Notes under the pieces: model-generated | The model's database searches: none | Told to the model about the DNA's origin: nothing | What the model saw: only the letters and a program-made list of their open reading frames with translations | Position numbers and translations under genes: made by a program | NCBI GenBank assembly: GCA_964355655.1 | Contig: CAYHDT010000002.1 | Location: forward strand, 15,598 to 79,597 | DNA length: 64,000 bases | DNA from: an uncultured Candidatus Saccharibacteria bacterium | GTDB taxonomy: Bacteria > Patescibacteriota > Minisyncoccia > Phycocordibacterales > SBAW01 | Direction of reading: 5' to 3' | In this document: positions 5,612 to 62,271 of the stretch, piece after piece | Layout: each line of letters begins with the position of its first letter | Position numbering within the stretch: position 1 is the stretch's first letter

Positions 5612-8452
5612 ATGGCGGAAAAGTACGACCACAAAACCATCGAAAAAAAATGGCAGGAGCGATGGGAAAAGGAAGGCGCTTTCCGCGCGGAGGACACATC
5701 GGATAAGCCGAAACAATACATACTCGACATGTTCCCGTACCCTAGCGGCGACGGACTGCACGTGGGACACGTCGAAGGGTACACAGCGACCGATATCTAC
5801 AGCCGCTACAAGCGTATGAAAGGCTTTAAGGTTTTGCACCCGATGGGGTGGGACGCGTTTGGCCTGCCGGCGGAGAACTACGCCATAAAGACCGGCGTGC
5901 CACCGCAAGAGACGACTGATAAATCGATAAACAACTTCCGCAGGCAGATTAAAGCCCTTGGCCTTTCCTACGACTGGTCGCGCGAGATTGGTACGCACAA
6001 CCCGGATTACTATCGCTGGACGCAATGGCTCTTTGCCAAATTTTTTGAAAAGGGTTTGGTGTACAAAAAGAAAGCGCTGGTCAACTGGGACCCGGTCGAC
6101 CAGACCGTGCTCGCCAACGAGCAGGTCCTTCCCGACGGCACCGCCGAGAGAAGCGGCGCCAAAGTAGAGAAGCGTGACCTGGAGCAGTGGTTTTTTAAGA
6201 TTACCGATTATGCCGACGAGCTTGCCGACTCGCTCGACCAAGTAGACTGGCCCGAGTCGACCAAAATAAACCAGCGCAACTGGATAGGCCGCTCGGAAGG
6301 AGCAGAACTTACCTTCAAAATATCAAGGTCGAACCTTGATGTAAAAGTATTTACCACGCGGCCGGATACGCTTTTTGGCGCAACGTACCTGGTGTTGGCT
6401 CCTGAACACCAGGAAATCTCAAATCTCAAACAACAAATTACAAACTGGGACGAAGTACTTCGATATATCGAAGTGGCAAAAAACAAAAACGATATTGAGC
6501 GTTCTGCAGAAGGGAAGGAAAAAACGGGTGTTGAGCTTAAGGGTATTAAAGCGATTAATCCGGCAAATAAAGAAGAAATCCCCGTATATATCGCCGATTA
6601 TGTGCTCGGTCATTATGGAACAGGCGCGATTATGGCCGTCCCCGCGCACGACGAGCGCGACTTTGAGTTTGCTAAGAAGTTTAATTTGCCAATACGCGAG
6701 GTTGTAGTGCCGGACAGAATAGATCCAAAAAACCCTCCGCTGGAAGGAAAAAAGAATGTCCCACGCCGCACTGTCCAGGTGGTGTTGCGCCGCCCGGCTG
6801 ACGGCAAGATCGTCGTGTTGCACTGGAGCCACCACTCATGGAAGACGCTGCTTATCGGCGGAGTAGAGGAGGGCGAAGAATTGATAGGGGCGGCAAAAAG
6901 AGAGATTTTGGAAGAAGCAGGGTACAAGAATATCCGCTTTGTTAAAGAGTTGGGGGATATGTACGCGGGTTACTTCGCCTCGCATAAAGATGAGAATCGC
7001 CGCGCCTATGTAACCGGCCTGCTTTTTGAACTTGTTGACGAGGAAAAAGAAGAAATCTCCGCTGAAGAAAAAGCGAAGCATGAGCCGGTATGGATGACTA
7101 TTGAAGAGGCAAAGGCGATTGTCATTGGCGTCGAGCCCCCGATTTTCTTAGAGCGGCTGGAAAAAGATTTGTGGGTATATACAGGCAAGGGTACGCTCGT
7201 TCATTCCGGAGCTTTCGATGGCGTTTCAAACGAAGAAGCCAAGAAAAAAATAGCCGAGGCGGTAGGCGGAGTGATGAAGAAGACCTACCGCCTGCGGGAC
7301 TGGCTGATTAGCCGCCAGCGGTATTGGGGGGCGCCTATACCTATTGTGTATGACCCGGAAGGCAAACCGCACGCGGTGCCCGAGGAACACCTGCCTTGGA
7401 TGCTGCCTACCGACGTGGAGTTTAAGCCGACCGGTACCTCGCCTTTGGGGCAGTCAAAAGAGCTTTTGGAACGCACTGAAGCGTTGTTCGGCAAGGGCTG
7501 GAAGCCCGAGATAGATACCATGGACACTTTTGCCTGCTCGTCGTGGTACTTTTTTCGCTTTGCCGACCCACGCAATGAACGTGAGTTCGCAAGCAAGGAA
7601 CAAATGCAAAAATGGCTGCCTATCGACCTATACGTCGGCGGAGCCGAGCACACCGTGTTGCACTTACTGTACGCGCGCTTTTTTACCAAAGTCCTGCGCG
7701 ACATGGGGTACCTTTCCTTTGACGAACCGTTTCTTAAACTCCGGCATCAAGGGACCATCCTTGCAGAGGATAGCCGCAAGATGAGCAAACGCTGGGGCAA
7801 CGTTATCAACCCCGACGACATGGCCGACAGATTCGGCGCCGACGCGCTGCGTATGTACGAAATGTTTATGGGCCCGCTGGAGGCTATGAAGCCGTGGAGT
7901 ACCAAGAATATAGCCGGTCTAGAGCGTTTTTTGGAGCGTGTGTGGAAGCTCGGCGAAAATCAAGGACAGTCCTTGGAGAGCCCTGAGCTAAGGACTGTCC
8001 TTAGCCCGGCTCTTGAGACTCTGCTCAACCAAACCGTCAAAAAAATCGGGGAGGATATTGAAAATCTTAAGCTGAATACAGCCGTTTCGGCGTTGATGAT
8101 TTTGCTCAATGAGTTGGAGAAGGGAGCTCCTCGCGCCGCATACGAAACGTTTATACAATTACTTGCCCCTTTTTCTCCGCACATAGCCTCCGAGCTTGCG
8201 GAAAGGGCGGGTATCTCGATTGTGGAATGGCCTACGTATGACGAGTCTAAACTGCTTTCCGAGACGGTAAAAATCGCGGTTCAGGTCAACGGCAAGGTAA
8301 GGGTAACTCTGGAATTCCCGATATCAGTCACTAAAGAGGAAGCACTTGCTGCCGCCCGTCTAAACGCTATAGTATCAAAATGGCTAGGGGAGGAGGAGGT
8401 CAAAAAAGTAGTATACGTGCCGGGCAAGATTATTAGTTTTTCCACAGAATAG
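5612..8452 (+). CDS. leuS: Leucyl-tRNA synthetase carrying an inserted Nudix hydrolase domain (about aa 383-510)
   Basis: HVGH at the N-terminus, a TTRPDT editing motif, and GTGAIMAVPAHDERD. The inserted segment has a perfect Nudix box GGVEEGEELIGAAKREILEEAGY (GX5EX7REUXEEXGU). The sequence resumes with YRLRDWLISRQRYWG. Confidence 0.95.
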   Translation: MAEKYDHKTIEKKWQERWEKEGAFRAEDTSDKPKQYILDMFPYPSGDGLHVGHVEGYTATDIYSRYKRMKGFKVLHPMGWDAFGLPAENYAIKTGVPPQETTDKSINNFRRQIKALGLSYDWSREIGTHNPDYYRWTQWLFAKFFEKGLVYKKKALVNWDPVDQTVLANEQVLPDGTAERSGAKVEKRDLEQWFFKITDYADELADSLDQVDWPESTKINQRNWIGRSEGAELTFKISRSNLDVKVFTTRPDTLFGATYLVLAPEHQEISNLKQQITNWDEVLRYIEVAKNKNDIERSAEGKEKTGVELKGIKAINPANKEEIPVYIADYVLGHYGTGAIMAVPAHDERDFEFAKKFNLPIREVVVPDRIDPKNPPLEGKKNVPRRTVQVVLRRPADGKIVVLHWSHHSWKTLLIGGVEEGEELIGAAKREILEEAGYKNIRFVKELGDMYAGYFASHKDENRRAYVTGLLFELVDEEKEEISAEEKAKHEPVWMTIEEAKAIVIGVEPPIFLERLEKDLWVYTGKGTLVHSGAFDGVSNEEAKKKIAEAVGGVMKKTYRLRDWLISRQRYWGAPIPIVYDPEGKPHAVPEEHLPWMLPTDVEFKPTGTSPLGQSKELLERTEALFGKGWKPEIDTMDTFACSSWYFFRFADPRNEREFASKEQMQKWLPIDLYVGGAEHTVLHLLYARFFTKVLRDMGYLSFDEPFLKLRHQGTILAEDSRKMSKRWGNVINPDDMADRFGADALRMYEMFMGPLEAMKPWSTKNIAGLERFLERVWKLGENQGQSLESPELRTVLSPALETLLNQTVKKIGEDIENLKLNTAVSALMILLNELEKGAPRAAYETFIQLLAPFSPHIASELAERAGISIVEWPTYDESKLLSETVKIAVQVNGKVRVTLEFPISVTKEEALAAARLNAIVSKWLGEEEVKKVVYVPGKIISFSTE

Positions 8453-11327: not shown

Positions 11328-11411
11328 ATGGTCCCGTTAGAGGCCACAAGTTTTTTATGATCAATAAAAATATTACTAGTATAATAGGGCGTCTGAGCCT
11401 CTAACGGGATG
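11328..11411 (+). repeat. Palindromic element copy 1 (ATG-g-TCCCGTTAGAGGC ... GCCTCTAACGGGA-TG), ending at the mltG start codon
   Basis: 13 bp perfect stem at 11332-11344 and 11397-11409, with a 52 nt AT-rich loop containing a TAGTATAAT box. The element is flanked by ATG on both sides. Confidence 0.7.
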
Positions 11412-16414: not shown

Positions 16415-16502
16415 ATGAGTCCCGTTAGAAATTGTGGAAGTATTAACTGGCAGGATTCTTTATTAGTATTTGGAAGCAAAGCTTCCTATTTCTAACGGGA
16501 TG
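16415..16502 (+). repeat. Palindromic element copy 2 (ATG-ag-TCCCGTTAGAAAT ... ATTTCTAACGGGA-TG), ending at the start codon of the Cas4-like nuclease gene
   Basis: Arms at 16420-16432 and 16488-16500, with a 55 nt loop. The stem extension covaries relative to copies 1 and 3 (AAT/ATT versus GGC/GCC and GAT/ATC). Confidence 0.7.
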
Positions 16503-18163: not shown

Positions 18164-18841
18164 TTGACTATGATAAAAATTGACCCAAGCTGGAAAGAAG
18201 TTCTGCAAGCCGAATTCGGCAAAGATTATTTTGCGGCTCTGACCGCTTTTGTTAAAGATGAGTACAAAAAAGGCGGGGTGTACCCTGCGCCTAAAAATAT
18301 TTTCAGGACTTTTGACCTGACTCCGTTTGATAAAGTAAAAGTCGTCATTCTGGGGCAGGATCCGTACCACGGGAAAGGACAGGCAAACGGCCTGTGCTTT
18401 GCGGTCGGGGAAGGGATGGCGTTACCGCCGTCTTTGCAGAATATATACAAAGAACTCGAAAGCGACCTGCATAATCAAGGACGGTCCTTGATTAAAACAG
18501 GGGATTTGGAACGATGGGCTAAGCAGGGAGTATTGCTGTTAAATGCGACACTGACCGTGCGGGCCGCCAGCCCCGGCTCGCATCAAAAAAAGGGCTGGGA
18601 GGAGTTTACCGACACGGCGATTAAAGCGCTATCGGAAAAACGGGAACATTTGGTATTTATCCTGTGGGGCAATTACGCCAAGCAAAAAGGAGTGCACATT
18701 GATCGCACTAAGCATTTGGTTATAGAGTCGCCGCACCCGTCGCCTTTTTCGGCGCATAGCGGCTTCTTTGGCTCGCGTCCATTCAGCAAGACAAATGAGT
18801 ATTTAACATCCACCGGCCAGCAACCAATCAGCTGGTTATAA
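18164..18841 (+). CDS. ung: Uracil-DNA glycosylase, family 1
   Basis: GQDPYHG, LLLNATLTV and HPSPFSAH motifs. Confidence 0.9.
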   Translation: MTMIKIDPSWKEVLQAEFGKDYFAALTAFVKDEYKKGGVYPAPKNIFRTFDLTPFDKVKVVILGQDPYHGKGQANGLCFAVGEGMALPPSLQNIYKELESDLHNQGRSLIKTGDLERWAKQGVLLLNATLTVRAASPGSHQKKGWEEFTDTAIKALSEKREHLVFILWGNYAKQKGVHIDRTKHLVIESPHPSPFSAHSGFFGSRPFSKTNEYLTSTGQQPISWL

Positions 18842-38989: not shown

Positions 38990-39028
38990 TAAAAAAGAAA
39001 AGCACCCTCGTAGGGTGCTTTATTAGTT
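38990..39028. terminator. Hairpin terminator
   Basis: AGCACCCTcgtaGGGTGCT flanked by A and T runs. Confidence 0.55.
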
Positions 39029-39083
39029 GGGGGAGTATCCTGCCCCTGCTTTTGCACTTAAACAAATATATGAGTTGTTGGCA

Positions 39084-39128
39084 TGAAAAACGAAAGGGCG
39101 GACAGGTCAGTCCGACCTTCCGCCCCTT
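39084..39128 (-). terminator. Intrinsic terminator after the 39142-39681(-) gene
   Basis: Minus strand: AAGGGGCGGAA-loop-TCCGCCCTTTCGTTTTT. Confidence 0.5.
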
Positions 39129-39141
39129 ATAATATTCAGAC

Positions 39142-39681
39142 TCAGACGTTGATCAAGTCGGGCCGCCTTGTTTCTTCGGAGCCAAATTTAACCTCCACCG
39201 TCTTTCCGTGTGTGTGACCGCGGCCGATGACCCAATTTTCGGCGCTCGCATCACTGAGCCATCGGGCCGAATCGTGGGTCCAGATGACTGGCGTGACTGA
39301 GCCATGGTAGTAGTCAAAGCGAGCGATGTACTTCTTGTAGTCGCGGCCTTTTCTCCAGCCATCGCCGATGAAAATCTCGGGAATGGAAGTAGACTGTCCG
39401 ATGTTGCTCACCCGCCATACGTTGTCGGTGCCTCTGCGCACCGCCAGATTAAGCACTCCGACTTTGATCTGGGTGATTTCTCCGTCCGATTTGCGGACGA
39501 GGTAGACAGCGTCGAAGTTTTCGAGCACCTTTTCGTCATTGCTGTAGGAATAGATCGAAAAGGAAGTATGCTTCGGAAATACTTGGCACCCAGTGATAAC
39601 CTCAAGGGCCAACTCCACCGCGCGCAAGGCCGTATGGACTGCGGCGTATGTATCAATCTGCTTCTTCGTTTTGCCGAACAT
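39142..39681 (-). CDS. Hypothetical protein (about 179 aa)
   Basis: Start chosen at MFGKTKKQ. Followed by its own terminator. Confidence 0.45.
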   Translation of the reverse strand: MFGKTKKQIDTYAAVHTALRAVELALEVITGCQVFPKHTSFSIYSYSNDEKVLENFDAVYLVRKSDGEITQIKVGVLNLAVRRGTDNVWRVSNIGQSTSIPEIFIGDGWRKGRDYKKYIARFDYYHGSVTPVIWTHDSARWLSDASAENWVIGRGHTHGKTVEVKFGSEETRRPDLINV

Positions 39682-39818
39682 GATTGTATCCCTTCTCAAA
39701 GGACTGCATCTCGGACTCATTCCGAGCGCACCGCTTTTGCGGTACTCAATATGGTATCATATAAGTAAATGAAAGTCAAGTGGTCGAAAATACCCTTATT
39801 TTTGGGCTCCCGGGGGGT

Positions 39819-39847
39819 TTGACACTTATTACGGGGTAGGTTAGGAT
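39819..39847 (+). promoter_or_regulatory. Candidate promoter TTGACA-N17-TAGGAT for the infA/ribosomal operon
   Basis: Perfect -35, acceptable -10, located 15 nt upstream of the infA ATG. Confidence 0.35.
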
Positions 39848-39861
39848 AGGGAACGTCGTTA

Positions 39862-40071
39862 ATGGATAGCCAAGCACCAGAAACTCAAGGCGTCGTTGAA
39901 GAAGCCTTGCCTAATACGTTGTTCAAAGTCTCTTTGGAGAACGGTGAGGTGGTGTTGTGTTATCTCGCGGGCAAAATGCGGCTTCACCGGATTAAAGTGC
40001 TTGTGGGAGACAAGGTCCTGATGAAGCTCGACCCCTATGGGGGGAAGGCCCGCATCACGCGGCGATTGTAG
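39862..40071 (+). CDS. infA: Translation initiation factor IF-1
   Basis: TLPNTLFKVSLENGEVVLCYLAGKMRLHRIKVLVGDKVLMKLDPYGGKARITRR is an S1-like IF-1 sequence. Confidence 0.9.
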   Translation: MDSQAPETQGVVEEALPNTLFKVSLENGEVVLCYLAGKMRLHRIKVLVGDKVLMKLDPYGGKARITRRL

Positions 40072-40074
40072 TAA

Positions 40075-40165
40075 ATGAATCCCGTTAGAGATGACGACGT
40101 TAAAAATATGACCATTAGCAAAATAACTACGGAAATGCTTTGCATTTCCTATCTCTAACGGGATG
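40075..40165 (+). repeat. Palindromic element copy 3 (ATG-aa-TCCCGTTAGAGAT ... ATCTCTAACGGGA-TG) between infA and rpmJ, ending at the rpmJ start codon
   Basis: Arms at 40080-40092 and 40151-40163, with a 58 nt AT-rich loop. Confidence 0.7.
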
Positions 40166-40276
40166 AAAGTAAAAGCTTCGATAAAACCCCGGTGCGCTAA
40201 CTGCAAAATGGTCCGCCGCAAGGGGCGGATTTATGTAGTGTGCATCAACCCGCGCCATAAGCAGCGTCAAGGATAA
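40163..40276 (+). CDS. rpmJ: 50S ribosomal protein L36
   Basis: [37 protein letters not shown] (37 aa, zinc-ribbon Cys/His). Too short for the ORF track. Confidence 0.85.
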
Positions 40277-40285
40277 TTTTAATTC

Positions 40286-40663
40286 ATGCGTATTTCAGGT
40301 ATAACAATTCCTAATAAACGAGTCGTCTTTGCTTTGACGGCCCTTTATGGTGTCGGACCTTCACGCTCCGCGGCGATATTAAAAAAAGCGAAGATTGATT
40401 TGCAAAAGAAAGCGGACGATTTGACCGCCGAGGAAGAGAACGCCATCCGCCGCGAGCTGGAGGTTATCAAGCTCGAGGGAGACCTCAAGCGCGAGGTTTC
40501 AGGCAATATCAAGCGGCTCAAAGACATCGGCGCGTACCGCGGGCTGCGCCACACCAAGAGGCTTCCGGTCCGCGGTCAGCGCACTAAAACTAACTCGCGC
40601 ACCGTGCGCGGCAATGTGCGCAAAACGATGGGCTCCGGCCGCCGCAAGGAGAGCAAGACATAA
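40286..40663 (+). CDS. rpsM: 30S ribosomal protein S13
   Basis: MRISGITIPNKRVVFALTALYGVGPSRS and GLRHTKRLPVRGQRTKTNSRT. Confidence 0.95.
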   Translation: MRISGITIPNKRVVFALTALYGVGPSRSAAILKKAKIDLQKKADDLTAEEENAIRRELEVIKLEGDLKREVSGNIKRLKDIGAYRGLRHTKRLPVRGQRTKTNSRTVRGNVRKTMGSGRRKESKT

Positions 40664-44713: not shown

Positions 44714-44745
44714 AATAATCGAGGACCGTCCTTGATTTAAAATAG
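44711..44745 (+). repeat. Palindrome-containing repeat upstream of dnaK (AAATAATCGAGGACCGTCCTTGATT)
   Basis: 17 bp near-perfect palindrome TCGAGGACCGTCCTTGA at 44719-44735. An almost identical copy lies downstream of dnaK. Confidence 0.6.
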
Positions 44746-44751
44746 AAAAGT

Positions 44752-46659
44752 ATGGGAAAAATTCTTGGAATCGATTTAGGCACCACTAACTCCGCCGCGG
44801 CGATAGTACAGGGCGGAGAGCCTAGAGTGCTCGAAAACGCGGAAGGTGCGCGCACCACTCCGTCGGTTGTCGCTACCTCTAAAACCGGCGAGCGTCTGGT
44901 CGGCCTTATTGCGCGCCGCCAAGCGGTCACCAATCCTAAAAACACGGTCTACCAAATTAAGCGCTTTATCGGCCATAGCTTCGACGAAGCAAATGTACAA
45001 AAAGACAAGGCTGTTGTTCCTTTTGAGATGCGCAAATCCGCAAACGGCGGCATCGAGGTCAAAATGGGCGACCTGCCTGCCGGCGGGCAGGGGCATTGGG
45101 TGCGCCCCGAGGAAGTCTCAGCCATGATTTTAGGCAAATTGAAGGCGGATGCTGAAAAGCGCCTGGGCGAGCCGATAACTGAAGCGGTCATAACCGTACC
45201 GGCGTATTTTAACGATGCTCAGCGCGCCGCCACGCGCGACGCGGGCAAGATTGCCGGGCTCGAGGTTAAACGCATCATTAACGAGCCTACCGCCGCGGCG
45301 CTTGCCTATGGCTTTGATAAAAAGAAGGACGAAAAAGTAGTTGTCTTCGACTTTGGAGGAGGTACCTTCGACGTGTCGGTGCTGGAAGTGAGTGCTGATG
45401 TTATCGAGGTCCGCTCCACCGACGGCGACGCGCATCTTGGCGGCAAGGACATCGACCAAAAAATAATAGACTGGCTGGCGGTCGAATTCCAGAAAGAGTC
45501 CGGTATCGACGTGCGCAACGACGCGCTGGCCCGCCAGCGCCTCGACGAGGCGGCGGAAAAGGCAAAAATAGAGCTTTCTACCTCCATGGAAACCGAGGTA
45601 AATATTCCGTTTATTACCTCGGACGCCTCCGGTCCGCGCCATTTGCTCGTAAAGATGAGTCGCTCGAAGCTCGAAGAGCTGACGGCGGAATACATTGACC
45701 GCGCGCTCGCCATTACCAAGCGCGCCATGGAGGCCTCGCCGTTTAAAATAGGCGACATCAACGAAGTCATACTTGTCGGCGGCCAAACCCGCATGCCGGC
45801 TCTGCAGGCAGCGGTTGAAAAATATTTCGGCAAAAAACCGAACATGTCGGTAAATCCCGACGAGGTAGTGGCTATCGGCGCCGCTATCCAGGGCGGTATA
45901 CTCGGCGGCGAGGTGCGCGATGTGCTTTTGCTCGACGTCATTCCGCTTTCTTTAGGCATCGAGACTATGGGCGGCGTGGCAACCAAATTGATAGACCGCA
46001 ACACAACTATCCCCACCGCAAAATCGCAGACATTCTCTACCGCGGCCGACAACCAAACAAGCGTGGAGATACACATAACACAGGGCGAGCGCGCCATGGC
46101 CAGCGACAACAAAAGTCTTGGCAAGTTTGTACTCGACGGCATTCCCCCCGCGCCCCGCGGACTCCCACAGGTTGAGGTAACCTTTGATGTCGACGCCAAC
46201 GGCATACTCAGCGTCAAGGCAAAAGACAAAGCCACCGGCAAAGAGCAGGCTATCCGTATCGAGGCAAGCTCAGGGCTAGCCGACGCCGACATTGAGCGCA
46301 TGCGCAAAGAGGCCGAGGCAAACGCCGAAACCGACAAGCAGAAAGTTGAGCTGGTAGAAGCGCGCAACATGGCCGACCAAGCGGTGTACGGCGCGCGTAA
46401 AGCTCTTGGCGACAACAAAGATAAAATCCCCATGGAGCTCGCGACCGCAATCAACGAAAAAGTTTCCGCCCTAGAATCCATTAAGGGGGGAGATGACTTT
46501 GTAAAAATAAAATCCGCAACCGAAGAACTGTCGAAAGAATTGTCCAAAGTCTACGAAGCGGTGCAAAAAGCCGGAGGTACTCCTCCGCCTCCGCCGGCCA
46601 GCGGAGAAACCCCTCCGGGCACTCAACAAGCGCCAACCGATACTCCGGAGCAGAAATAA
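44752..46659 (+). CDS. dnaK: Chaperone DnaK (Hsp70)
   Basis: [17 protein letters not shown] and [11 protein letters not shown] signatures, with a full-length SBD. Confidence 0.97.
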
Positions 46660-46687
46660 TCAAGGACCGTCCTTGATTATTTTAGGT
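46655..46687 (+). repeat. Second copy of the palindromic repeat (AAATAATCAAGGACCGTCCTTGATTATTTT), immediately after the dnaK stop
   Basis: Perfect palindrome TCAAGGACCGTCCTTGA at 46660-46676 followed by a T-rich tract. It may also act as a terminator. Confidence 0.6.
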
Positions 46688-51455: not shown

Positions 51456-52742
51456 ATGGAGCGCACTCTTATTGCCGATTTGCAAAACAAAAAAGGGGAG
51501 GCGGTAACCATCCAGGGCTGGGTTAGCGTGCGGCGCGACCAGGGCAAGATGGTATTTTTTGACTTCCGCGACCGCTCGGGCGTGGTACAGGGCGTTACCT
51601 TACCCGCTTCGCCGGCGATAGAAACCGCTAAAGAGGTGCGCAATGAGTACGTGGTTTCGGTCGAAGGCAAGGTCAACGAGCGCCCGGAAAAAAATCGCAA
51701 GGAGGGTGTGCAAAACGGCGATATCGAGTTGGAAGTACTGGGTATAGAAATAATCTCCAAGGCAGAAATTCCGTTTGAGCTGGGCACTGAAGTCAATCTC
51801 GATACGTATCTCGACCACATGCCCTTTACCCTACGGGCAGAAAAGGCGAAGCAGATTTTTAAAGTACAGCAGGCGATAATCGAAGGATTTCGAGAGGGAA
51901 TGAAAGCCCAGGACTTTACCGAATTTCAGGCGCCCGCGCTGGTGGGCGGCGACGCCGAGGGCGGAGCCGCGGCTTTTAAGGTTGACTATTACTACGAGCA
52001 AAAAGCCTACCTAGCAACCAGCCCGCAACTGTACAAACAAATAATGGTGGGTGTTTTTGAAAGGGCTTTTACCACGCCTAAGATATTCCGTGGAGAAAAG
52101 CACGCTACCACGCGCCACCTCAGCGAGTATACATCGCTCGACTTTGAAATGGGTTTTATTAAAGACCATACCGACGTAATGGCCGCGCTGGCGAAGACCA
52201 TGCGAATAATCGTCAAGAAAACGGGTATTGACGTTGCCATACCGGAACAGATTCCTGTATTAAAATTGCGCGAAGTGCAAAAGATACTTGGTGTGGGAGA
52301 GGAGCCCGACCTCGAGCCCGAGCATGAGCGCGCCATTTGCGAGTGGGCGCTGCGTGAGCACAACTCAGATTTTGTGTTTGTGACGCACTACCCCGTCAGC
52401 AAGCGGCCATTCTACACTTACGAAGACGAGGCCGACCCGGGTTTTACCAAAAGTTTTGACCTCCTCTTCCGCGGGCTAGAGATTACGACCGGCGGCCAAC
52501 GCATCCACAACTACGACGCGCTGGTGGCCGCTGCAAAGGCAAAAGGGCTCGACCCAAGCAAGTTTTCTTATTATCTGGAGACGTTTAAAGTCGGCATGCC
52601 GCCGCACGGCGGCTCGGCCACGGGGCTCGAGCGCCTGACCGCCCGCTTGCTTAACCTCCCCAATGTCAAAGAAGCAACTCTCTTCCCCCGCGACCTCAAC
52701 CGCATCGACATCCTCCTCTCGACAGATAAAAAAGAAGAATAA
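51456..52742 (+). CDS. aspS: Aspartyl-tRNA synthetase, archaeal/eukaryal type (probably non-discriminating)
   Basis: N-terminal OB fold. Class II motifs include FRGLEITTGGQRIHN, VGMPPHGGSATGLERL and TLFPRD, which match archaeal-type AspRS rather than AsnRS. Confidence 0.8.
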   Translation: MERTLIADLQNKKGEAVTIQGWVSVRRDQGKMVFFDFRDRSGVVQGVTLPASPAIETAKEVRNEYVVSVEGKVNERPEKNRKEGVQNGDIELEVLGIEIISKAEIPFELGTEVNLDTYLDHMPFTLRAEKAKQIFKVQQAIIEGFREGMKAQDFTEFQAPALVGGDAEGGAAAFKVDYYYEQKAYLATSPQLYKQIMVGVFERAFTTPKIFRGEKHATTRHLSEYTSLDFEMGFIKDHTDVMAALAKTMRIIVKKTGIDVAIPEQIPVLKLREVQKILGVGEEPDLEPEHERAICEWALREHNSDFVFVTHYPVSKRPFYTYEDEADPGFTKSFDLLFRGLEITTGGQRIHNYDALVAAAKAKGLDPSKFSYYLETFKVGMPPHGGSATGLERLTARLLNLPNVKEATLFPRDLNRIDILLSTDKKEE

Positions 52743-54480: not shown

Positions 54481-54597
54481 AAACTGGAGCGCCTGACCGC
54501 CCGCCTGCTTAACCTCCCCAATGTCAAAGAAGCAACTCTCTTCCCCCGCGACCTAAATAGAATCGACACCCTGTTGAGTACCGATAAAGGAGAATAG
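54481..54597 (+). pseudogene. Duplicated 3'-terminal fragment of aspS (encodes ...LERLTARLLNLPNVKEATLFPRDLNRIDTLLSTDKGE*)
   Basis: About 72 nt are near-identical (2 mismatches) to 52625-52697. The tail encodes the same peptide with mostly synonymous, AT-shifted codons. No upstream catalytic domain. Confidence 0.7.
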
Positions 54598-61143: not shown

Positions 61144-62271
61144 ATGAAAATACTTTTTACCGGCGGGGGGTCAGGCGGGCATTTTTATCCCATCATAGCG
61201 GTCGCCGAGGCTATCAACGACCTTACCCGCGAGCGCAAACTTTTGGAGCCTGAATTAATTTACGCCGCGCCGGACCCGTACGACCGCGAGATGCTTATCG
61301 CCAACGGGATACGCTTTGTGCCGACCTCGGCGGGCAAAATCCGGCGCTATTTTTCTGTGCTCAACTTTTTTGACTTCTTTAAGACCGGGTGGGGGATTCT
61401 GCGCAGTGTGCTGCGGATTTTCTTTCTTTATCCGGATATCGTCTTCGGCAAAGGCGGCTACGCGTCTTTCCCCACACTGCTCGCGGCCAAGCTTTTTAAA
61501 ATTCCGGTCATCATACACGAATCCGACGCAGAGCCCGGACGGGTCAACAAATGGGCGGGAAAATTCGCGGCCAAGATAGCGGTGTCATTCCCCGAGGCGG
61601 CGCATCATTTCCCGAAAGAAAAGGTTGCGTTTACCGGCAATCCTATACGCAAAGCGGTACTGGTGCCGGCCCGCGAAGGCGCGTTCGAATTTCTGAAGCT
61701 CAATAAAGAATTGCCGGTCATATATGTTACCGGCGGCTCGCAAGGCGCCCAGGCGCTTAACGAAGGACTACTTGCGGCGCTTCCGCAGCTCCTTAATAAA
61801 TATCAAATCATCCACCAGACGGGGGACGATAATCTTACAGACATTATCGGGCGCGCCAAGGTCATCTTGGGCGACTCCCCGAACGCCGAACGCTACAAGC
61901 CGGTTGGCTACCTTAACGACCTCGCCACGCGGATGGCCGCCGGCGCGGCAAGCCTTGTTATCTCGCGCGCGGGATCGACTATTTTTGAAATAGCCTCATG
62001 GGGAGTGCCGTCGATACTTATTCCGCTTCCGACCGCGGCCGAAGACCATCAAACCAAAAATGCCTACGCCTACGCGCGCGCCGGCGCCTGCGCCGTAATA
62101 GAGCAGAGCAATCTTACCCCGGGCCTGCTGGTCTCCGAGGTAAACCGGATATTGGACCACGAGCCCCTCAAACACGCGATGAGCAACGCGGCACGCGCGT
62201 TCTCGCGCGTGGACGGGGCGCGGCTCATCGCCGCCGCGCTGCTTGACATCGCTATCTCCCACGAGCAATAA
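61144..62271 (+). CDS. murG: Undecaprenyldiphospho-muramoylpentapeptide beta-N-acetylglucosaminyltransferase
   Basis: FTGGGSGGHFYPIIAVAEAI and the C-terminal GT-B domain GSQGAQALNE. Confidence 0.9.
   Translation: MKILFTGGGSGGHFYPIIAVAEAINDLTRERKLLEPELIYAAPDPYDREMLIANGIRFVPTSAGKIRRYFSVLNFFDFFKTGWGILRSVLRIFFLYPDIVFGKGGYASFPTLLAAKLFKIPVIIHESDAEPGRVNKWAGKFAAKIAVSFPEAAHHFPKEKVAFTGNPIRKAVLVPAREGAFEFLKLNKELPVIYVTGGSQGAQALNEGLLAALPQLLNKYQIIHQTGDDNLTDIIGRAKVILGDSPNAERYKPVGYLNDLATRMAAGAASLVISRAGSTIFEIASWGVPSILIPLPTAAEDHQTKNAYAYARAGACAVIEQSNLTPGLLVSEVNRILDHEPLKHAMSNAARAFSRVDGARLIAAALLDIAISHEQ

Follow-up and report, generated by a model that had tools for sequence, protein, structure and literature searches.

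The window, that is, the whole 64-kb stretch of DNA analysed here, includes a ribosomal-protein operon in which infA (IF-1, 69 aa; positions 39862–40071, plus strand; Pfam PF01176, E = 2.5e-20) is followed by rpmJ (L36, 37 aa; 40163–40276, plus strand; PF00444, residues 1–37) and then by rpsM (S13, confirmed by Pfam; 40286–40663, plus strand), all three being present in the list of open reading frames (ORFs). A consensus scan recovered a promoter-like site upstream of infA, TTGACA-17-TAGGAT (39819–39847, plus strand), both hexamers of which are conserved in three related loci (L120, L123 and L124), and the transcript running through the element described below probably originates here. Relative to the same three loci, the window carries about 770 extra bases (c. 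38990–39760), which separate a 430-aa gene from the infA promoter and hold a minus-strand ORF of 192 aa (39142–39720) with no Pfam match.

The infA-rpmJ junction and its counterpart in relatives

A palindromic element, the third of its kind in the window (copy 3), had been placed between infA and rpmJ by the initial annotation; its presence was confirmed, with slightly tighter limits of 40080–40163 (84 nt; no strand is assigned to it, its repeats, its flanks or its hairpin). The 84-bp body separates infA from rpmJ, begins and ends with 13-bp terminal inverted repeats, TCCCGTTAGAGAT on the left (TIR-L, 40080–40092) and ATCTCTAACGGGA on the right (TIR-R, 40151–40163), and is bordered by a target-site duplication whose two copies of TGAA lie at 40076–40079 and 40164–40167. 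One nucleotide from the right repeat, a subterminal hairpin, GGAAATGC-TTT-GCATTTCC (40131–40149), is predicted. infA terminates with TAG (40069–40071), followed by an in-frame TAA (40072–40074), and the rpmJ start codon is composite: the element contributes its final A, and the right-hand TGAA contributes the TG. Once the element and one copy of TGAA are taken away, the junction reads TAG TAA ATGAAAG, in agreement with the earlier claim that TAGTAA alone would otherwise part the two genes. The old rpmJ ATG (40075–40077) opens a plus-strand ORF of 27 codons (40075–40158), hereafter the relay ORF, which ends within the right repeat at TAA (40156–40158), 4 nt before the rpmJ AUG.

As RNA, copy 3 is predicted to fold into a 15-bp terminal helix and an 8-bp inner hairpin with an energy of -33.2 kcal/mol (z = -6.9), a value matched by none of 200 shuffled sequences, and the A and U of the rpmJ AUG would be the last two paired bases of the 15-bp helix. 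An intrinsic (Rho-independent) terminator was considered and rejected: positions 40075–40170 contain neither a plus-strand site nor a T-run, and the sole match is the inner hairpin on the minus strand. Searches against Rfam 15 gave no match in the whole window at the gathering score, and only two chance matches in positions 39950–40300 at E values up to 10.

The ribosomal protein S13 places the source organism near Candidatus Adlerbacteria, Paceibacteria. For copy 3 alone, the same operon was compared in close relatives with 90–95% identity in S13 (eight loci: L120–L125, L132 and L133). In all eight, the infA stop is followed after 3–7 nt by a single ATGAAG, with no element and no structure, whereas the identical element is present in L131, a same-species contig from Hainich groundwater whose sequence is identical here. 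No exact empty allele of the source species at this junction was found in metagenomes. The single ATGAAG and the short spacer of the relatives indicate that copy 3 is a recent gain that duplicated TGAA. The spacer in related genomes, on which the initial annotation had made its reading depend, is short and unstructured, so that the insertion reading stands, and the earlier view that the element is tolerated within a ribosomal-protein operon holds as well, in that it is an extra insertion there, absent from the loci of the eight relatives. By this comparison of sequences, copy 3 was inserted recently into the start codon of rpmJ. What had been missed earlier is that a transposon-like insertion entered the start codon itself, duplicated TGAA and regenerated the ATG.

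Two further copies are found in the window. When up to two mismatches are allowed, the 14-mer arm has six matches in the 64 kb, against 0.26 expected, and none of 100 shuffles reached six; four of the matches are the arms of copies 2 and 3 and one is the right arm of copy 1, while the match at 61297 was rejected as an element, being a chance match inside coding sequence. Copy 2 (16420–16500, 81 bp, flanked by TGAG; no strand assigned) lies exactly on the ATG of a PD-(D/E)XK nuclease gene; a TAAAAT hexamer ends 8 nt upstream of its old ATG, and its relay ORF (16415–16495, read from sequence and translation; 26 aa) is closed in the same way as that of copy 3, after 26 codons. Copy 1 (11332–11409, 78 bp; no strand assigned), which has only a 3-bp flanking repeat, TGG, lies exactly on the ATG of a YceG-family gene, and the ORF from its old ATG closes after 10 codons. 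In each of the three copies, the end coincides exactly with the downstream gene's ATG, and a short direct repeat flanks the element. The ends of the Correia elements (CREE/NEMIS) can create promoters. Because no consensus promoter was found in a scan of the interiors of the three window copies, a promoter-delivery role is unsupported here.

Other repeats also occur in the window. A second, unrelated palindrome family, AATCAAGGAC(S)GTCCTTGATT, is present at 18471–18497, 44715–44741 and 46656–46682, with weaker copies at 6319–6345 and 7956–7982. Two of these palindromes bracket a 635-aa ORF (44752–46659) whose product looks like DnaK, and the motif could be a heat-shock regulon operator, or else a terminator or REP-like repeat. 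A 111-nt direct repeat (52626–52736 and 54484–54594) has copies that are 86% identical and 1858 nt apart.

A family of small inverted-repeat elements

Further copies were sought with an exact-core scan (TCCCGTTAGA, a gap of 45–75 nt, then TCTAACGGGA), which matched at least 119 stretches when run on species-representative genomes and at least 120 when run on metagenomes. As 10 core bases of the repeat are fixed by this pattern, diverged relatives lie outside the family as sampled. Among the matches listed, the samples comprised 130 genome copies and 124 new metagenome copies, with start-codon subsets of n = 58 and n = 61, respectively. The hosts among these matches are mostly Patescibacteria of many lineages, and a minority carry the labels Omnitrophota, Planctomycetota, WOR-3, Nitrospirae, Stahlbacteria and Gammaproteobacteria; these genomes are metagenome-assembled, and some of the labels may be wrong. 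The core pattern matched no more than five viral contigs, and carriage of the family by phages was rejected on this ground.

The copies share the marks of transposition. Among the matches listed, a perfect 4-bp flanking repeat surrounds 86 of the 130 genome copies and 77 of the 124 metagenome copies (0–5 in shifted controls), and in a minority the duplication measures 3 bp or 2 bp. Symmetrising the target sites of these matches gives A|TNNA|T, in which the T and the A stand at 90%. The inverted repeat is exactly 13 bp long, since positions 11–13 vary and are complementary in 87–96% of copies, and pairing drops to 25%, the chance level, at position 14. The ends read TCCCG...CGGGA. Interiors vary widely in sequence and length within copies of 65–95 bp, a range fixed by the search pattern, and their longest ORF is about 27 codons. 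Subterminal hairpins were seen at the same position, with differing sequence, in 24 element ends of the family; in many copies they are perfect 6–8-bp stems that stand 1 nt from the repeat and have unrelated stem sequences. One subfamily was found in both orientations relative to the host gene.

In addition to the simple copies, composites of up to about 170 bp exist (L014 4620–4789, L017 3211–3381, L077 7140–7295, L040 1965–2134, L112 412–581 and L032 2088–2232). In these, a short GC-rich unit with its own repeats, usually without a duplication of its own, stands close to that end of a longer AT-rich unit which faces the gene; in L017 and L112 it lies in the loop of the hairpin of the longer unit. 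Many loci (for example L013, L001, L069, L039 and L070) contain an internal (A/T)AGCGGGAT 12–20 nt past the left repeat; this motif duplicates the terminus of the right repeat, and its pairing with TCCCG could give a small alternative hairpin. In L110 (2731–2821), a tRNA-Thr (TGT) gene sits directly between two 10-base repeat cores with no flanking duplication, and the repeats would lengthen its acceptor stem by 10 bp.

The duplication, the 13-bp repeats, the variable interiors and the occurrence of both orientations fit a non-autonomous, MITE-like transposon. Further features agree with this class: neither the simple elements nor the composites contain a transposase gene, the target duplication has the characteristic length of 4 bp, three copies are dispersed over the window in addition to those in the scanned genomes and metagenomes, and empty sites are available for copy 3. 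Bacterial MITEs are non-autonomous derivatives of insertion sequences. The family resembles them in its small size, terminal inverted repeats, duplication of fixed length, many dispersed copies, presence and absence between relatives and lack of a transposase gene; unlike them, it has no known parent insertion sequence, shares the same 10-base core among several phyla, and has two-thirds of its copies exactly on a start codon, which they rebuild. Long repeat pairs that would mark an autonomous element were absent from about 1.7 Mb of fetched loci, where the pairs found were separate small copies or chance; no recurrent transposase-like protein was seen near the elements, the 775 clustered ORFs from the loci representing housekeeping families only; and BLAST searches of the element against plasmid and phage collections returned chance matches only. 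A literature search turned up no paper that treats the motif as such an element and none on patescibacterial MITEs, and the family is apparently undescribed so far and cross-phylum.

Several known types of small palindrome were compared with the family. Descent from the repeats of single-strand transposases, either REP/REPIN with RAYT or palindromes derived from IS200/IS605, would account for the small size, the hairpin and the subterminal hairpins. Those repeats lack a target duplication and long terminal inverted repeats, REPs carry a GTAG or CGTC tag, and IS200/IS605-derived palindromes lie 3' of a fixed tetranucleotide. In the present family, about two-thirds of the copies have a 4-bp duplication, the repeats are 13 bp long, and the ends read TCCCG...CGGGA rather than the tag. 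Both candidates were rejected, and we give this origin almost no credence. The integron attC site was rejected because its RYYYAAC 5' and GTTRRRY 3' motifs are present in the opposite order (GTTAGA ... TCTAAC). Correia elements have repeats of about 24–26 bp and a TA duplication, are restricted to Neisseria, and are co-transcribed with neighbouring genes to give long hairpins in mRNA (PMC2229807). The present family is like them in the long hairpins that it is predicted to form in co-transcribed mRNA and in having ends that create or carry expression signals. It was distinguished from them by the sequence and length of its repeats, its TNNA duplication and its hosts, Patescibacteria and others, and Correia elements lie near genes, not within the start codon.

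The same conservation and pairing could also be read as those of a host cis-regulatory RNA, such as a riboswitch- or thermosensor-like element or a leader-peptide attenuator, that was recruited before many genes and is not selfish. The closing helix is very well conserved across phyla (its cores are fixed by the search pattern), the variable repeat positions remain complementary, the subterminal hairpins change in sequence and keep their pairing, and the internal CGGGA of many copies could pair with the left arm in an alternative structure. These observations are outweighed, in our opinion, by the lack of an Rfam match at gathering or relaxed thresholds, by an interior that is conserved neither in sequence nor in length (65–95 nt), by functionally unrelated downstream genes (L36, YceG and a nuclease in the window), and by the target duplications, the empty sites in relatives and the two orientations, all of which are signs of mobility; a regulatory RNA is accordingly judged improbable, and the MITE-like transposon is retained as the class of the family.

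Start codons and -35 boxes as sites of residence

Residence on start codons is a property of the family as a whole. Among the matches listed, an ORF of at least 60 codons has its ATG exactly at the element in 84 of the 130 genome copies, and an ORF of at least 35 codons does so in 83 of the 124 metagenome copies. At 114 of 260 element sides, an ORF of 60 codons or more is found in the frame of the ATG, against 22 and 16 in the other frames. Copies of the TGAA type are found at ORF starts in 76 of 89 cases (85%), against 13% expected if every TGAA site that is non-coding or at a start codon is taken as equally usable (p about 1e-53). In three copies, a GTG stands on the left and the rebuilt ATG on the right; therefore, the A is the element's own. 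In a different class, with TTGA as the duplication, 8 of 12 copies (L012, L016, L019, L063, L064, L078, L083 and L118) lie exactly on a TTGAC(A/T/G) box that is followed 16–18 nt later by TAnnnT; these copies sit at the first base of the -35-like box and rebuild the promoter on one side.

The genes that receive an element at their start codon appear to be of two kinds. In 29 of the 58 start-codon copies of the first sample, a -10-like TANNNT hexamer ends 5–10 nt upstream, which gives the gene a leaderless look; in 30 of the 58, a co-directional upstream ORF ends no more than 40 nt away, so that the gene looks translationally coupled, as at infA-rpmJ. A Shine-Dalgarno-like motif upstream was seen in only 7 of the 58. 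Such a motif is present just inside the right repeat in 15 of the 58, against 2 of 58 in a mirror control. As a whole, the family resides at start codons that lack a Shine-Dalgarno leader, in seemingly leaderless or coupled genes.

The excess at start codons could arise from targeting or from the survival of harmless insertions. As a tentative proposal, which we regard as possible but rather less than probable, the family may be a transposon adapted to translation start sites: a widely shared enzyme would actively direct it to the opening bases of genes that lack a Shine-Dalgarno leader and to the first base of -35 boxes, the ends of the element would restore ATG or TTGACA, and the relay ORF would hand on translation. 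If this proposal is true, the family would be a portable 5' module that crosses phyla and could be used by its hosts to tune expression, and its removal would be difficult, since a gene loses its start whenever the element is lost imprecisely.

Possible translation across the element

The old ATG keeps its original context, and the family reads M-x-P-V-R from it into the element. The way in which the relay frame ends is set by the length of the element modulo 3, giving UAA-CGGG-AUG, an overlapping AUGA, or an in-frame fusion to the host protein (...SNGM...), the last being found in 7 of the 58 start-codon copies of the first sample. One case of an in-frame N-terminal extension is shared by the same gene in two related genomes (L107 782–846 and L111 7081–7145), where the inner hairpin has paired compensating changes (AGACATC/GATGTCT versus AGGTATC/GATACCT). 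The other two frames from the left ATG are closed by the left repeat, and therefore only the interiors, together with shuffled sequences, were used as a control. In the frame of the old ATG, the interior is stop-free in 35 of 58 copies, against 11 and 11 in the other frames and a mean of 12.6 (maximum 23) in 1000 shuffles; in the independent metagenome sample, 37 of 61 are open, against 18 and 15, with a shuffle mean of 16.6 and a maximum of 27. The frame is closed in about 40% of the start-codon copies, including window copy 1, some of which have a Shine-Dalgarno-like motif inside the right end. Lengths divisible by 3 were in excess in the first sample (30 of 58); the second (20 of 61) did not bear this out, and no weight is placed on it.

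The hairpin had been predicted in the initial annotation to sequester the rpmJ initiation region. This stands insofar as the 15-bp helix is predicted to take in the A and U of the AUG; the 27-codon ORF that runs open through the hairpin instead points to read-through and unwinding by ribosomes. Taken over the family, the excess of open relay frames, a property of the sequences themselves, points to ribosomes that read through the element and unwind its hairpin rather than to simple sequestration.

We consider it probable that copy 3 is a recent MITE insertion that rebuilt the rpmJ ATG and that may be tolerated by means of a translational relay. The sequences show that the 84-bp non-autonomous element entered the rpmJ start codon after its A and before its TG, with A|TGAA as the target. 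Because the element ends in A and the duplication begins with TG, an ATG is formed anew at the right-hand border, and L36 stays the same. Transcription from the infA promoter would now yield an RNA bearing a hairpin of -33 kcal/mol, the base of which covers the A and U of the rpmJ AUG, and the old ATG, still 3 nt past the infA stop, would open the 27-codon ORF across the whole element. Ribosomes that end infA may then restart on the old ATG, melt the hairpin by translating it, stop at the UAA in the right repeat, and restart on the rpmJ AUG 4 nt further on. Such a chain of coupling, from infA to the relay ORF to rpmJ, would leave the element harmless inside the operon.

Several known systems bear comparison with this model. 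Termination-reinitiation coupling uses close or overlapping stop and start codons (UGAUG/AUGA), needs no Shine-Dalgarno sequence, and lets the ribosome open local structure. The relay would be analogous, with a stop 4 nt before the next AUG or overlapping it, and would differ in that a mobile element provides the coupling frame, which would form a chain from infA by way of the relay ORF to rpmJ. Bypass inserts (phage T4 gene 60 and the 'byp' elements of Magnusiomyces mitochondria) are hopped over by the ribosome from a take-off codon to a landing codon. They share with copy 3 a hairpin-forming insert in an expressed gene with a repeated codon on both sides; copy 3, however, lies at the very start of the gene, a position that rules out a bypass insert and at which ordinary initiation or reinitiation suffices. 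To our knowledge, no relay ORF has been described for Correia elements. The Rickettsia palindromic elements (RPE) and ERIC/YPAL survive in expressed sequence by means of one open, translated frame (PMC2229807). The present family likewise has an open frame through the palindrome, and the seven fused copies resemble these elements further; RPEs, however, lie inside coding regions and join the protein, whereas the family usually has a separate short ORF that ends before the regenerated start.

It is also conceivable, though we think it rather unlikely, that the same mobile element acts through its hairpin, which would hide the rpmJ start or be cut by an RNase III-type double-strand RNase and thereby lower or uncouple the expression of rpmJ and the downstream ribosomal protein genes, the small ORF being incidental. 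The pairing of the A and U of the AUG, the 15-bp helix and its z of -6.9 agree with this, as do comparable roles described for Correia/NEMIS hairpins and RNase III (PMC2229807) and the lack of an open relay ORF in about 40% of the family. However, sequestration alone does not predict a read-through frame that is open about three times as often as the other frames or the shuffles in two independent samples, the right repeat by construction places a stop 4 nt before the AUG or overlapping it, and the element stands upstream of further ribosomal protein genes and rpoA. The opposite emphasis, in which the small ORF would be a genuine gene and the element a vehicle for a functional peptide of about 20–27 residues, such as a toxin or a regulatory leader peptide, might be drawn from the open ORF in about 60% of start-codon copies; as only the residues encoded by the repeats are common (an M-x-PVR start, and a stop preceded by F or L), the central part differs wholly between subfamilies with no common length, and some copies are fused in frame to the host protein, we regard such a peptide as very improbable. 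The relay by reinitiation is therefore retained as the preferred explanation of how copy 3 may be tolerated.

Start codons and ribosomal protein operons are places in which a mobile element would be expected to do harm. The family appears to have solved this problem, by ends that re-form the start codon or a -35 box and by an open frame that can pass ribosomes on to the host gene. For annotation, the consequence is that gene callers will mis-call starts, add N-terminal extensions and miss short genes such as rpmJ beside the elements; the 13-bp ends provide a simple marker by which copies can be located. If the model is confirmed, selfish DNA would have a new means of persisting in the very compact patescibacterial genomes, and the family would offer a natural system in which to test how leaderless and reinitiation-type translation works in uncultured lineages.
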